Made by a program: the position numbers and the translations under genes
The notes under the pieces: generated by a model
What the model saw: only the letters and a program-made list of their open reading frames with translations
Database searches by the model: none
What the model was told of the DNA's origin: nothing
IMG/VR virus record: IMGVR_UViG_2675903654_000014
Coordinates: 1-4,062 of that record
Direction: 5' to 3' (one strand)
DNA from: a virus
Lineage: Duplodnaviria > Heunggongvirae > Uroviricota > Caudoviricetes
DNA length: 4,062 nt
Shown: in pieces, positions 1 to 3,710 of the stretch
Numbering within the stretch: position 1 is the first letter of the stretch
Layout: every line of letters starts with the position of its first letter

Positions 1-227
1 GGGAAGGCTGGGCCATACTCCTCCGGCAGAAGCAGAAAAAGCTTATTATGCTTCCATCGGAAACGATGATCTGGCAGCCTGAGTTCACAGATAAAACACT
101 CTCCAGGAAACCCGGGGCGGTTCAAAACGCCCATGATTTTACAGGCTTTTGATACGTTGCTGAGTTCTTCAGCCAGATTGAGCAAACCGGCTTTGTGTTT
201 GATAACGGGATTGGTAGTATGAAGCAT
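1..227 (-). CDS. Partial CDS (start in window, runs off the left edge): putative DNA-binding protein with HTH-like N-terminus and a CxxC...Hx5H motif
   Basis: ATG at 227-225 on minus with GAGGT Shine-Dalgarno 8 nt upstream; frame open for 75 codons to position 1 with no stop. Translation begins MLHTTNPVIKHKAGLLNLAEELSNVSKACKIMGV, then ...GECFICELRLPDHRFRWKH. Absent from the ORF track because it is edge-truncated. Confidence 0.4.
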   Translation of the reverse strand, partial: MLHTTNPVIKHKAGLLNLAEELSNVSKACKIMGVLNRPGFPGECFICELRLPDHRFRWKHNKLFLLLPEEYGPAF

Positions 228-287
228 GAGAGTTACCTCGTGTTTTGTATAAGGATTCGACACCCATATCAAAACCGGTAACTCTCA
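227..287 (-). promoter_or_regulatory. Fold-back inverted repeat predicted to sequester the SD and AUG of the left HTH ORF
   Basis: Perfect 11-bp arms TGAGAGTTACC (227-237) and GGTAACTCTCA (277-287) separated by 39 nt. On the minus-strand RNA the downstream arm contains the last two G of the SD and the A of the AUG. Confidence 0.35.
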
Positions 288-350
288 ACCTTTCAAGGCT
301 CAGTGTCAGATCAAGTCGCGACTAATACACTCAATTCCATCATAAACTTC

Positions 351-479
351 TCAGTTGTTAGCTTTTGCCGAACTGGAAAGCGCCTGTTTAAACTCACTGA
401 AGCTGAGAGCTTCTTCGCCTTCGGCAAGGCCTTCGAAGTATTCTTCGTAAGCCTTTTTCATGATTGTGTCGAAATCCAT
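351..479 (-). CDS. Small hypothetical protein, 42 aa, acidic and probably helical
   Basis: ATG at 479-477 on minus with GGTGA SD 5 nt upstream; stop TGA at 353-351; lies 10 nt downstream of the 48-aa ORF stop. Translation MDFDTIMKKAYEEYFEGLAEGEEALSFSEFKQALSSSAKANN. The overlapping plus-strand track ORF 303..533 is F/L-rich with a GTG start and looks like its antisense shadow. Confidence 0.45.
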   Translation of the reverse strand: MDFDTIMKKAYEEYFEGLAEGEEALSFSEFKQALSSSAKANN

Positions 480-489
480 ATCACTCACC

Positions 490-636
490 TTAGTTTCTTT
501 CCAACCAGCGACGTGCGCCAGCTTCGGTTTTAAACGATTTGCTTTTGGTATACGTCATGGCGGTGAATGTGCCGTCCTGATTGGGAAACACGCCACATAC
601 CAGAGATTCGTTGTTGCCAAGATCGATAGTATCCAT
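490..636 (-). CDS. Small hypothetical protein, 48 aa
   Basis: ATG at 636-634 on minus with GAGG SD 5 nt upstream; stop TAA at 492-490. Translation MDTIDLGNNESLVCGVFPNQDGTFTAMTYTKSKSFKTEAGARRWLERN. The track extends this frame to a TTG at 699 that has no SD; the internal ATG is preferred. Position next to the repressor resembles the tiny ydaG/ydaF-type ORFs of Rac-like prophages (size and position only). Confidence 0.45.
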   Translation of the reverse strand: MDTIDLGNNESLVCGVFPNQDGTFTAMTYTKSKSFKTEAGARRWLERN

Positions 637-816
637 GTTGACCTCATTTCCCCTTAACGCCGGGTGGCGGAACGTTTTATCTACTGCGCTTTGTATCAAT
701 CAACAACTGCCGTCATGTTCGTATGCCTCAGGCTGGCTACTTAGCCCTGTTCAGTGGCTGGATAACTCGAGGTATTGTCCAGCCGTTCTCTGGTGGGGCG
801 TTGTTTGGATATGCTT

Positions 817-845
817 ATTAAACACAATGCGTTTTCTTATGTCAA
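817..845 (-). promoter_or_regulatory. Leftward sigma70-type promoter (PL-like): TTGACA, 17-bp spacer, TTTAAT
   Basis: On the minus strand, perfect -35 TTGACA (plus 840-845) and -10 TTTAAT (plus 817-822) with a 17-bp spacer. It lies just downstream of the repressor terminator and is oriented toward the small ORFs. Confidence 0.5.
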
Positions 846-885: not shown

Positions 886-911
886 ACAAAAAAGCCCGCT
901 GATAGCGGGCT
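886..911 (-). terminator. Rho-independent terminator for the repressor gene
   Basis: 8-bp GC-rich stem AGCCCGCT (893-900) / AGCGGGCT (904-911) with a 3-nt loop, followed on the minus strand by UUUUUGU (plus A-run 888-892). It is 30 nt downstream of the repressor stop and is not a terminator in the plus orientation. Confidence 0.55.
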
Positions 912-941: not shown

Positions 942-1361
942 TTACTCCGGTGGGGGATTATCTTTAAGCCTGCCTCTCAAATATTTTTCTACATACTCAT
1001 CGATTTCTTTTAGCCGGACTTCAAATAGCTCAATCATTCGTTGTTGTTCTGAGCCAGGTAGCTGGTTAAACAACTCAAGAAGTTTTCGTTGGGATTCATT
1101 TAACCACAATTCAGAAGATTCCTGTTCTCCAAATAGGAGCTCAGGAGGAGATATGCCAAGTGCCTTTCCCAATACGACAGCGTCATGCACTCCAACATTT
1201 CTGCTGCCCGCCTCATAGTTACCTATACGCGATTGCGTCCATCCGCAGATTTCAGCAAGTTTTCCTTGAGATAAACCAAGCTTCTGCCTGCGCTCTTTAA
1301 GACGCATTGCAATTTTGTCATTGAGCCTACTAGCGGCAATTTTTTCGTTTTCTTTTTCCAT
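942..1361 (-). CDS. Prophage repressor, XRE-family HTH (CI/RacR-like), 139 aa, no S24 peptidase domain
   Basis: Track ORF with ATG at 1361 and AAGGA SD 4 nt upstream. HTH segment LGLSQGKLAEICGWTQSRIGNYEAG; C-terminal part is helical and charged with no Ser/Lys peptidase motif. Divergent from a Cro-like gene, as in lambdoid immunity regions. Confidence 0.85.
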   Translation of the reverse strand: MEKENEKIAASRLNDKIAMRLKERRQKLGLSQGKLAEICGWTQSRIGNYEAGSRNVGVHDAVVLGKALGISPPELLFGEQESSELWLNESQRKLLELFNQLPGSEQQRMIELFEVRLKEIDEYVEKYLRGRLKDNPPPE

Positions 1362-2985: not shown

Positions 2986-3710
2986 ATGAAAAATATTGCG
3001 ACAGGCGGTGTTCTTGAACGTATCCGTAAGCTGGCTCCGCAGCATGTAACCGCGCCGTACCGGACTGTGGACGAGTGGCGAGAGTGGCAGCTTGCAGAAG
3101 GGCGAAAACGTAGCGAGGAGATCAACCGCCTGAATCGTCAGTTGCGGGTGGAAAAAATTCTGAATCGCTCAGGCATCCAGCCGTTGCATCGTAAATGCTC
3201 GTTTGCAAATTACCAGGTGCAGAACGACGGCCAGCGATACGCGTTNNNNNNNTGATGACCGGGGGTACAAATTTTGCGTTCAGCGGAAAACCTGGTACCG
3301 GGAAGAACCACTTAGCGGCAGCTATCGGAAATCGCCTGCTGAAAGATGGCCAGACAGTGATTGTGGTTACTGTGGCTGATGTTATGAGTGCCCTGCATGC
3401 CAGCTATGACGACGGACAGTCAGGCGAAAAATTTTTGCGGGAACTGTGCGAAGTGGATCTGCTGGTTCTTGATGAGATTGGCATTCAGCGCGAGACGAAA
3501 AACGAGCAGGTGGTACTGCACCAGATTATTGATCGACGGACAGCGTCGATGCGTAGCGTGGGAATGCTGACAAATCTGAACTATGAGGCCATGAAAACAT
3601 TGCTCGGTGAGCGGATTATGGATCGCATGACCATGAACAGCGGACGCTGGGTGAATTTTAACTGGGAGAGCTGGCGTCCGAATGTCGTCCAGCCAGGAAT
3701 TGCGAAGTAA
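2986..3710 (+). CDS. DnaC-like replicative helicase loader (AAA+ ATPase; YdaV-like), interrupted by a 7-N gap
   Basis: N-terminal part [20 protein letters not shown]...[26 protein letters not shown] and C-terminal part ...[20 protein letters not shown]...[10 protein letters not shown]...[22 protein letters not shown] align by eye with E. coli DnaC (Walker A GKPGTGK, Walker B LLVLDE). ATG at 2986 with GGGGG SD; stop TAA at 3708-3710. The two halves sit in different frames across the N-run at 3246-3252. Confidence 0.8.
3246..3252. other. Run of 7 ambiguous bases (assembly gap or masked sequence) inside the DnaC-like gene
   Basis: nnnnnnn in the sequence; flanking coding frames differ, and by alignment to DnaC about 11 residues are missing. 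Confidence 0.9.

Follow-up and report, generated by a model that had tools for sequence, protein, structure and literature searches.

Does the leftward transcription unit that opens beside the repressor gene of this prophage encode real proteins, and, if so, to which operon does it belong and what might its products do? The DNA analysed (the window) is a stretch of 4,062 nucleotides in which two very short open reading frames (ORFs) lie on the minus strand behind a promoter overlapped by a palindrome. The window corresponds to the immunity region of a Rac-type prophage, and with a probability of roughly 0.9, the segment considered here opens the leftward early (PL-type) operon of this lambdoid E. 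coli prophage, with ydfA (DUF1391) and ydfB as its two ORFs. Both are real genes that already bear these names; what the initial annotation had observed is correct, and the feature is known and ordinary. The annotation of the 100% identical record NZ_CP148401.1 places the prophage next to ttcA, with intR, xisR, ralR, and recT, as in Rac. DNA resembling the ydfA region is found in 4605 of 5426 complete E. coli genomes (~85%), often in multiple copies, and the homologous Qin operon has been under study since the 1980s (PMC5069750, PMC10448788).

Two short genes, ydfA and ydfB

The first ORF runs on the minus strand from an ATG at 636 to a TAA at 490 (490–636) and encodes 48 amino acids, preceded at a distance of 5 nt by the Shine–Dalgarno (SD) sequence GAGG (645–642). 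It matches the Pfam family DUF1391 (PF07151, the YdfA/YdaF family) with 99.1 bits (cut-off 27.3; E = 1e-28) over profile positions 1–47 of 48, belongs to PHROG 751, and has the RefSeq entry WP_032353028.1, "DUF1391 family protein". The second ORF, on the same strand, extends from an ATG at 479 to a TGA at 351 (351–479) and encodes a 42-amino-acid YdfB homologue; its SD, GGTGAG (489–484), stands 4 nt before the ATG and beside the ydfA stop codon. It is 86–95% identical, at 98–100% coverage, to clusters named "protein YdfB", matches PHROG 2061 (E = 1.4e-25), and has the RefSeq entry "ydfB: protein YdfB" (WP_072171937.1). The two tightly spaced ORFs, their lengths, the 10-nt gap, and the separate SDs are thus all as the initial annotation had described them, whereas its statement that annotation misses these proteins and that no domain can be recognised in them is not supported, since RefSeq/PGAP annotates both at exactly the same locus in NZ_CP148401.1. 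The gap is usually 1 nt in other alleles; the 10 nt seen here result from a single TCA-to-TAA change at codon 49, peculiar to the ydfA allele of the window, which makes the protein 3 amino acids shorter than the usual 51.

Chance alone produces many ORFs of such length (the window contains 60 of at least 25 amino acids), so the case for two genes comes from conservation and not from the ORFs themselves. In ydfA, pN/pS is 0.13, and variable sites are distributed over the three codon positions as 8/9/32; in ydfB, pN/pS is 0.25–0.32, against about 1.0 in the other two frames, at low divergence (pS about 0.1) and with many singleton changes. Out-of-frame values for the two genes together range from about 1 to 3.8. 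The ORFs have 335 and 110 protein clusters, respectively, in a database of 5.8 billion sequences, and the comparison of alleles shows the start codons and SDs of both to be conserved. Both ORFs are under purifying selection. Conservation with synteny and coding constraint, two of the points raised for checking at the outset, came out in favour of the genes: ydfA is the first gene in 87 of 87 loci, ydfB follows directly in about half of them, and wherever ydfB is present (46 of 46 loci), it stands immediately after ydfA. That the pair might be non-coding leader or spacer sequence left open by chance, a reading for which the abundance of such short ORFs in the window could be cited, is so improbable in the face of the DUF1391 match, the third-position excess, the frame-specific constraint, the cluster numbers, and the conserved starts that it can be set aside.

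Names and labels require some care in this family. Some phage records wrongly label YdfA as "head-DNA stabilization protein D", and a chance match in the PDB echoes this label. YdfA was considered as a head decoration protein and rejected, as the PDB sequence search gave only a chance-level match (E = 0.42). Similarly, the "ydfA" of the IbfA abortive-infection paper is an unrelated IncI-plasmid gene of the same name.

Promoter, operators, repressor, and leader

By direct reading and pattern search, the minus strand carries a PL-type promoter with a -35 hexamer TTGACA (840–845), a 17-nt spacer, and a -10 hexamer TTTAAT (817–822); the promoter reported earlier is thus present at 845–817, as is the overlapping palindrome at 844–858. 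The pattern TTGACA-N17-TWTAAT, with at most one mismatch, has one match in the window against 0.07 expected, and at least one match occurs in 15 of 200 shuffles; the exact pattern alone has a chance of ~7% of occurring in a window of this size. The promoter is missing from a stricter consensus scan because the second base of its -10 is T instead of A, at a position where A is highly conserved. Its register is shared more widely: at least 10 alternative immunity modules, placed upstream of the same leader, keep a TTGAC(A/T) or TTTAC hexamer in the same position, and the window -10 aligns in register with TATAGT in the promoter of K-12 Rac, as it does with -10-like hexamers in other modules. The mosaic junction between these modules and the shared leader lies near the predicted transcription start. 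The window promoter corresponds to Qin dicBp and λ PL.

Two putative operators flank the -35. OL2, at 844–858, is a perfect 15-bp palindrome AACACGAAATGTGTT (AACAC-N5-GTGTT) that overlaps the upstream edge of the -35, and OL1, AACACAATGCGTTTT at 821–835, has one mismatch and covers the spacer and 2 nt of the -10; their centres are 23 bp apart. Putative operators of the same family also lie between the repressor and cro genes (1373–1433), namely, ATCAC-N5-GTGAT (1373–1387) and AACAC-N5-GTGTT (1419–1433). With at most one mismatch, AACAC-N5-GTGTT has three sites in the window against 0.17 expected, a number reached in none of 200 shuffles, and all three sit at the two promoter regions. The OL2 half-sites are invariant in 10 near-identical relatives, the changes falling in the central N5, and the variable positions of OL1 likewise fall in the central spacer. 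Operators that overlap the promoter and recur at the divergent repressor/cro promoters are what a PL-type unit would have, as is the succession on the minus strand of the end of the repressor gene (942), a terminator (911–893), and the promoter (845–817).

The repressor itself (942–1361, minus strand; RefSeq WP_000410105.1) is a DicA-like protein of 139 amino acids, in which HTH_3 is the only Pfam domain. It scores 57.2 bits against the NCBIfam DicA model (NF007257), below the cut-off of 101. It has the architecture of DicA, that is, HTH_3 with a C-terminal extension and no peptidase domain, but belongs to another specificity group. The intrinsic terminator 3' of its gene (893–911, minus strand), consisting of an 8-bp stem with six GC pairs followed by TTTTTT, may insulate the promoter from read-through.

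Transcription is predicted to start near A810, giving a 5' leader of ~174 nt (637–810, minus strand). This leader is common to prophages with different promoter/operator modules, at 76–100% identity. The lower value (~76%) approaches the identity at synonymous sites of ydfA (pS 0.27), so mostly no special explanation is needed. A conserved RNA structure was not found by RNAalifold in 15 diverse leaders (covariation term +0.14, a single pair with changes on both sides), the predicted fold of the window leader is no more stable than those of its shuffled versions (minimum free energy z = -0.30), and an Rfam search of the leader gave no match; a nut-like site, a riboswitch, and a small RNA in the leader were ruled out on these grounds. 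The leader also contains a residual upstream ORF of six codons, MTAVVD* (696–716, minus strand), behind an invariant GAGG-N9-ATG. In other lineages, this ORF has 18–24 codons or is fused in frame to ydfA, and its variability accounts for the "long" YdfA gene calls of 77–83 amino acids. A TTG-initiated frame of 69 amino acids (699–490) was rejected as the real YdfA, since its extension is unconserved, and the upstream ATG frame ends after six codons in the window lineage and is absent from Qin-type loci.

Taken with the Qin and Rac precedents, the sequence suggests how the unit would work. In the lysogen, the DicA-like repressor would bind the two AACAC-N5-GTGTT operators, covering the spacer and -10, and keep the promoter off, while the terminator after the repressor gene would stop read-through. 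The repressor lacks an autocleavage domain, and derepression would thus be expected through an antirepressor or repressor instability, not through RecA-stimulated cleavage. Upon derepression, transcription would begin near position 810, and YdfA would be made after the ~174-nt leader, followed by YdfB from the ribosome-binding site beside the ydfA stop codon, possibly by coupling.

A truncated relative of the Qin and Rac operons

The left end of the window (1–336) is occupied by insertion sequences: IS1203/IS629, of which the right end is present (1–125), has inserted into the 5' portion of a transposase gene of the IS481 family (126 to ~336; minus-strand start codon at 227), as indicated by the NZ_CP148401.1 annotation and IS481 matches. 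Homology with other ydfB loci stops at about position 347; all that lay downstream of ydfB has been lost to the IS481 fragment and IS1203/IS629. The IS elements now follow ydfB directly, and division-inhibitor or recombination genes, which would further mark a PL-type operon, do not follow in the window. Relatives with the same promoter module carry kilR-ydaE-racC, and STEC308 carries ydfC-kilR-ydaE-recE, so the absence of such genes here is secondary. The description of the locus as an operon of two therefore stands only in part: the two genes are co-oriented, but an operon of this pair alone is an artefact of the insertions. With the operon truncated and ydfA carrying a premature stop at codon 49, the unit may be decaying. 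An Rfam psRNA2 match at 230–388 (37 bits against a gathering score of 65) lies mostly in the 5' leader of the IS481-family element and extends ~38 nt over the 3' end of ydfB in antisense; it was dismissed as unrelated to the operon.

In most relatives, a division-inhibitor module, either dicF-dicB or kilR, comes after ydfA, and the intact phage Tritos has the order cI / ydfA ydfB ydfC DicF dicB ydfD exoVIII xis int. The initial placement of the ORFs in a leftward early unit, where lambdoid phages keep takeover, kil, or exclusion genes, is borne out by their PL-type position directly downstream of the repressor gene, in which relatives have dicF/dicB, kilR, and sieB.

The dicBF operon of the cryptic Qin prophage in E. 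coli K-12, dicBp-ydfA-ydfB-ydfC-dicF-dicB-ydfD, is the first of the closest known systems. It shares with the window the order repressor, promoter, ydfA, and ydfB on one strand with a divergent cro-like gene, homologous ydfA and ydfB, a short HTH repressor without a cleavage domain, and a PL-like promoter with operators that also occur in the repressor–cro intergenic region (PMC10448788). The Qin dicBp is PL-like and DicA-repressed, its transcript begins upstream of ydfA, and ydfA mRNA is visible on northern blots; deletion of dicA derepresses the operon 22-fold, and DicA, which has no cleavage site, is antagonised by Rem (PMC10448788). The window differs in its immunity specificity (a repressor of 57 bits against the DicA cut-off of 101, and AACAC-N5-GTGTT operators), in sharing with Qin only ~40 nt around the ribosome-binding site upstream of ydfA, in its integration at the Rac site beside ttcA, and in the loss of ydfC, dicF, dicB, and ydfD through the IS insertions.

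The cryptic Rac prophage of K-12 occupies the same chromosomal site as the window prophage, with intR, xisR, ralR, and recT in the flanks and ydaS/ydaT/ydaV-like genes to the right. Its early-left operon reads racR / ydaG-ydaF ... kilR-ydaE-racC-recE-recT, in which ydaF is a DUF1391 paralogue 87.5% identical to the window ydfA over 48 amino acids. The leaders are homologous (~76% identity), and the promoter register is equal (TTGACA-17-TATAGT in Rac). Depletion of RacR derepresses ydaF and ydaG ~40-fold (PMC6765115). The window, however, lacks ydaG and sieB, has ydfB, which is absent from K-12 Rac, and possesses a repressor and operators unlike those of RacR.

With lambda PL/OL, the window shares a leftward promoter beside the repressor gene, several operators about two helical turns apart (23 bp in the window) that overlap the promoter hexamers, and, downstream, a set of accessory, kil, and recombination genes ending in xis and int. 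Unlike lambda, it lacks an N gene, nothing resembling a nut structure could be detected in its leader, its repressor lacks the S24 peptidase domain, and its first genes, ydfA and ydfB, have no lambda counterpart. A lambda N/nut module was accordingly rejected, on the 15 diverse leaders without a covariation-supported helix, the z of -0.30, and the match of YdfA to DUF1391 only.

Possible roles of YdfA and YdfB

Searches for function gave little. Fold searches with YdfA and YdfB returned no significant match and no function, NCBIfam has no model for either peptide, and PADLOC, which covers defence and not anti-defence, gave no meaningful match (AbiEi, E = 0.047, 11 bits). The best we can tentatively infer is that YdfA and YdfB may be non-toxic accessory early proteins that bind other proteins, such as host or phage-defence factors or proteins of the switch.

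One or both might be counter-defence or host-takeover proteins that inhibit a host factor, with the acidic YdfB (pI 4.3, net charge -5.5) perhaps mimicking nucleic acid or sequestering a cation, a reading that we hold possible but tentative. It fits the location of the genes in the part of the early-left operon that varies in its accessory content, with sieB, kilR, dicB, and ralR-type genes as neighbours, the patchy presence of ydfB and its narrow taxonomic range, as in accessory genes, the charge of YdfB, and the non-toxicity of both proteins by the Qin precedent; however, neither PADLOC, given its scope, nor the search for structural matches to known inhibitors connects them with such a role, and the sole phenotype is a match in an overexpression screen for oxidant resistance (PMC8228696).

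Regulation of the phage switch or of early transcription, for instance, through cIII-like stabilisation of YdaT, the cII analogue, or through strengthening or relief of repressor action at PL, is rather unlikely, though it deserves consideration. The invariable place of ydfA as the first gene after PL is one that lambda gives to a regulator, the authors of one study raise the possibility that something encoded by the dicBF operon helps to maintain DicA repression (PMC10448788), and both proteins are predicted to be small helical or beta-alpha structures suited to protein binding. Against this, Pfam, NCBIfam, PHROG, and fold searches linked neither protein to N, cIII, or families that bind DNA or RNA, the leader lacks a conserved hairpin usable as a nut-like site, and more distant DUF1391 genes occupy non-switch contexts in phages Bas97 and CGphi29.

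A more specific proposal starts from the predicted structure of YdfB, helix(3–16)-loop-helix(27–40) with a pLDDT of 85.5. Its segment E-G-E-E-x-L-S-F-x-E-F aligns with the D-G-D-G-x-I-S-F-x-E-F of EF-hands, loop position 12 is Glu (the invariant E29), the second helix would begin at loop position 10 in the model, and the YdfB profile weakly matches EF-hand proteins from three independent families (PDB profile E 0.014–0.6). Loop position 1, however, is Leu (at least 90% conserved) instead of Asp, position 6 is Glu instead of Gly, and the motif would be single and not one of a pair. With these two canonical positions failing, no Pfam EF-hand match in 19 family members at E up to 5, and an hhalign probability of only 33%, YdfB was rejected as an EF-hand. 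A bolder idea, in which YdfB would be a single, degenerate EF-hand-like peptide that forms dimers and binds either a host protein or a divalent cation, and would make up with YdfA an unrecognised class of non-toxic early effectors (counter-defence or switch tuning) that accompanies Rac/Qin-type division-inhibitor modules, is improbable and is offered as speculation.

Finally, YdfA and YdfB occupy a kil-type gene position, are tiny and tightly coupled, and ydfA always stands ahead of division inhibitors, as might be expected if they were themselves kil-like host-killing or division-blocking proteins or a toxin–antitoxin pair. Yet deletion of dicF and dicB from the induced Qin operon relieves growth inhibition (PMC5069750), Rem-driven derepression in a dicB dicF double mutant proceeds without it (PMC10448788), and a filamentation screen assigns the Qin effect to dicB/dicF (PMC6206680). 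As the Qin operon is no longer toxic when dicB and dicF have been removed, kil-type toxicity is improbable for YdfA and YdfB. Moreover, about half of the loci with ydfA lack ydfB, so the two genes do not form an obligatory pair; a type II toxin–antitoxin pair was rejected on this ground and on the Qin precedent (PMC5069750), and the reading as a whole is very unlikely.

As a discovery, the locus carries little weight: these genes, their arrangement, and the kind of control are known from Qin and Rac, and both ORFs are picked up by standard pipelines. The analysis adds several points of possible use to experiments: the operator motif of this immunity type, AACAC-N5-GTGTT, the junction between module and leader, codon-level selection on both ORFs, a variable upstream ORF, and a weak EF-hand-like signature in YdfB. 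The role of YdfA and YdfB, with ydfA always ahead of the toxic dicF/dicB or kilR modules, is a question that the field already recognises.

Identity of the two genes and selection on their reading frames

The first of the two minus-strand reading frames (ORF1) runs from an ATG at 636 to a TAA at 490 and encodes 48 aa, with a GAGG 5 nt ahead of the ATG; the second (ORF2) runs from an ATG at 479 to a TGA at 351 and encodes 42 aa, with a GGTGAG 4 nt ahead of its ATG, adjoining the ORF1 stop. Chance alone often produces ORFs of this size, and the window has 60 that are 25 aa or longer, so whether the two are genes must be judged by comparison. ORF1 scores 99.1 bits with Pfam DUF1391 (cut-off, 27.3) with the whole model covered, also matches PHROG 751, and by these matches is a member of the YdfA/YdaF family. 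No Pfam or NCBIfam model matched ORF2, which falls in PHROG 2061 (E = 1e-25) and is, at full length, 86–95% identical to proteins named "protein YdfB" by NCBI. RefSeq names both at the same locus (WP_032353028.1, "DUF1391 family protein"; WP_072171937.1, "ydfB: protein YdfB"), and the initial annotation was therefore wrong in holding that the ORFs escape annotation pipelines and carry no domain.

Conservation, proposed there as a check on the pair, was found: 4605 of 5426 complete E. coli genomes contain similar DNA, at a median of two places per genome, and ydfA is the first gene of its operon in 87 of 87 loci. Coding constraint was likewise borne out in a set of alleles taken from the window, the annotated E. 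coli loci, and 80 IMG/VR loci that a YdfA search had retrieved. Among 39 distinct ydfA alleles, variable sites are distributed 8/9/32 over the three codon positions, and the mean pN/pS is 0.13 vs. 3.8 and 2.4 in the two wrong frames, so ydfA is clearly under purifying selection. For ydfB, pN/pS is 0.32 among 22 distinct 129-nt alleles and 0.25 for the first 34 codons of all alleles, vs. 1.0–1.15 in the wrong frames; ydfB is under purifying selection too, on thinner evidence (pS of approximately 0.1 and many singletons).

The usual ydfA/ydfB junction is TGA-T-ATG, with the ydfB Shine–Dalgarno (SD) sequence lying within ydfA. The 10-nt gap in the window is due to a TCA-to-TAA change at ydfA codon 49 (490–492), found among 85 sequences only in the window and an identical RefSeq copy, which shortens the product from 51 aa to 48 aa by three residues that lie outside the Pfam core. 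In 14 IMG/VR loci, ydfB runs beyond codon 34 into ORFs of approximately 100–200 aa, most of 191 aa; PHROG 35040 matches their YdfB part, and the extension looks of low complexity. These ORFs may be deletion-generated fusions, not a real longer protein.

Both families are narrow. In a 5.8-billion-sequence database, YdfA forms 335 clusters and YdfB 110, essentially all from Escherichia, Shigella, Salmonella, and Citrobacter, and out of 1.8 billion an exhaustive YdfB profile search recovered just 81 representatives, with few exceptions shorter than 100 aa. The genes are carried by sequenced phages as well as cryptic prophages: DUF1391 occurs in 19 phage records (e.g., Tritos, HannyBb, mEp460_ev081, and PhiR42_1), with more distant copies in Serratia, Pantoea, and Salicola phages, and YdfB occurs in four. 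Several GenBank phage records (ON470580, ON470583, PV340562, and others) call the DUF1391 product "head-DNA stabilization protein D," a label that looks like a propagated mis-annotation because the local similarity of YdfA to head decoration proteins is at chance level (PDB 1td0, E = 0.42).

A truncated early-left operon

The closest known systems are the Qin dicBF operon and the Rac early-left operon of the cryptic E. coli K-12 prophages, and the positional reasoning that had placed the pair at an early-left site was sound. In Qin, the dicBF operon opens with ydfA and ydfB (dicA, ydfA ydfB ydfC dicF dicB ydfD), and in Rac the paralogue ydaF is placed after racR and ydaG. The intact phage Tritos has the order cI, ydfA ydfB ydfC DicF dicB ydfD exoVIII xis int, and STEC308 has ydaG-ydfA-ydfB-ydfC-kilR-ydaE-recE-recT. 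Across the 87 loci, ydfB directly follows ydfA in about half and ydfC is variable, and a division-inhibitor module is nearly always found downstream of ydfA where the locus DNA extends far enough. This module is either dicF + dicB + ydfD or a dicF-like RNA + kilR + ydaE + racC, and loci sharing the promoter module of the window have the kilR set. In many kilR-type IMG/VR loci, a dicF-like sequence lies in the interval from ydfA to kilR, and the K-12 Rac locus has the annotated sRNA KilS at the corresponding place (2406–2503 of that locus). These sequence likenesses suggest a division-inhibitor sRNA common to dicB-type and kilR-type operons.

In the window, similarity to other ydfB loci ends approximately 4 nt beyond the ydfB stop codon, and IS sequence follows directly; the apparent two-gene operon is therefore a truncated remnant. 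The elements are nested: an IS481-family transposase gene, present with its 5' part (126 to approximately 336), is interrupted by an IS1203/IS629 right end (1–125), and both stand in place of ydfC and the division-inhibitor genes; a truncated recE-like pseudogene lies past them in the record. An Rfam psRNA2 match at 230–388 was rejected as sub-threshold (37 bits vs. a gathering score of 65); most of it falls on the IS481 leader.

The plus strand carries a cro-like HTH gene (1458–1700) followed by a YdaT-family gene (1697–2119), a replication-initiator-like gene (2197–2979), and a ydaV/DnaC-like ATPase gene (2986–3710). The last contains seven N (3246–3252) that split it in the ORF list; they represent masking and not mutation, as ydaV is intact, at 747 bp, in the identical RefSeq record. 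Just before and inside the initiator-like gene, a perfect 19-bp dyad, GTAACGC-N5-GCGTTAC, occurs three times (2165–2183, 2357–2375, and 2564–2582) at a spacing of approximately 200 bp; none are expected by chance, and 200 shuffles yielded none. The dyads resemble origin iterons, or binding sites for the initiator, within the initiator gene, and lambda O is likewise an initiator gene with such sites inside. Taken as a whole, the window is a Qin/Rac mosaic whose immunity specificity is its own and which insertion sequences have degraded.

Promoter, operators, and leader

Direct inspection found the promoter, palindrome, ORFs, SDs, and 10-nt gap of the initial annotation all present. The PL-type promoter on the minus strand consists of TTGACA (845–840), a 17-nt spacer, and TTTAAT (822–817); TTGACA-N17-TWTAAT has this single match in the window vs. 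0.07 expected, with at least one in 15 of 200 shuffles. The -10 has T at its second base, where A is usual, and a stricter consensus scan omits the promoter for this reason. At its upstream edge, the -35 is overlapped by a perfect 15-bp palindrome, AACACGAAATGTGTT (844–858), and a second copy with one mismatch (821–835) spans the spacer and two -10 bases; their centres are 23 bp apart, a lambdoid operator geometry. The window has three AACAC-N5-GTGTT sites with at most one mismatch vs. 0.17 expected (0 of 200 shuffles reached three), the third site (1419–1433) lying between the repressor and cro genes together with a related perfect palindrome, ATCAC-N5-GTGAT (1373–1387). The half-sites are invariant in ten near-identical relatives of the module, with substitutions confined to the central N5 or between sites.

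Among 41 loci with the common ydfA leader, at least 10 unrelated promoter/operator modules lie upstream, in all of which a hexamer reading TTGAC(A/T) or TTTAC and a second, -10-like hexamer keep the same register, including TTGACA-17-TATAGT in K-12 Rac. Homology returns approximately 8–10 nt past the -10, so the mosaic junction between "immunity" and "early-left" segments lies at about the transcription start, predicted near A810.

The repressor gene (942–1361, minus strand; 139 aa) has HTH_3 as its sole domain, with no peptidase domain, and reaches 57 bits with the DicA model (cut-off, 101); it is DicA-like in architecture but differs in specificity. A strong intrinsic terminator after it (911–893; 8-bp stem, six GC pairs, and T-run) would stop its transcript from entering the operon. 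In a lysogen, the repressor would hold the promoter off, by analogy with published Qin and Rac work carried over to the present immunity type. The Qin dicBp is PL-like, with a 22-fold rise upon dicA deletion, and its polycistronic transcript begins upstream of ydfA, whose mRNA is seen on northern blots; DicA has no RecA cleavage site, the antirepressor Rem counteracts it, and the switch flips spontaneously in approximately 1% of cells (PMC10448788). In Rac, depletion of RacR raises ydaF and ydaG approximately 40-fold, and kilR too (PMC6765115; PMC11014345).

The leader of approximately 174 nt (810–637) is 76–100% identical across immunity types, roughly equal to the ydfA synonymous-site level (pS 0.27). 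Conserved structure was not found in it (covariation term +0.14, with one pair changed on both sides; MFE z-score -0.30), and an Rfam search gave no match. Its one invariant block is GAGG-N9-ATG, whose ATG (716–714) opens an upstream ORF of six codons in the window (MTAVVD*; block and ORF together span 696–729, minus strand) and 18–24 in other lineages. In 19 loci this ORF is joined in frame to ydfA, which accounts for the "long" DUF1391 database proteins of 77–83 aa. The block is wholly absent from Qin-type loci, and the conserved YdfA product is therefore the 48–51 aa core.

Possible roles of YdfA and YdfB

The literature gives no function for YdfA or YdfB (PMC5069750; bioRxiv 10.1101/2024.09.21.614188). 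Growth inhibition is relieved when the Qin operon is induced without dicF and dicB (PMC5069750), and Rem-driven derepression is harmless in a dicB dicF double mutant (PMC10448788), which argues that neither protein is a killer. AlphaFold predicts three beta-strands and a C-terminal helix for YdfA (pLDDT 70) and a helix-loop-helix for YdfB (pLDDT 85.5), which is strongly acidic (pI 4.3, net charge -5.5). Fold searches returned nothing significant, no solved relative was found, and PADLOC had no match for them. The best guess is that they are non-toxic accessory early proteins working by protein binding. Counter-defence or host modulation is a tentative, rather unlikely role for them, and regulation of the phage switch is a doubtful one.

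The extended YdfB family profile gives weak but repeated matches to EF-hand proteins, including two multi-EF-hand proteins matched via repeated stretches (E of approximately 6e-4 in a 1.8-billion-protein library) and eight of 10 PDB hits in three EF-hand families (E 0.014–0.6). EGEExLSFxEF in YdfB resembles the EF-hand motif DGDGxISFxEF, and the second predicted helix begins at loop position 10, which also holds for EF-hands, but Leu is nearly invariant at loop position 1 and Glu occupies position 6, no family member is matched by Pfam EF-hand models, and hhalign against calmodulin EF-hands gave 33%; membership was rejected in favour of resemblance only.

The feature is already known and annotated.
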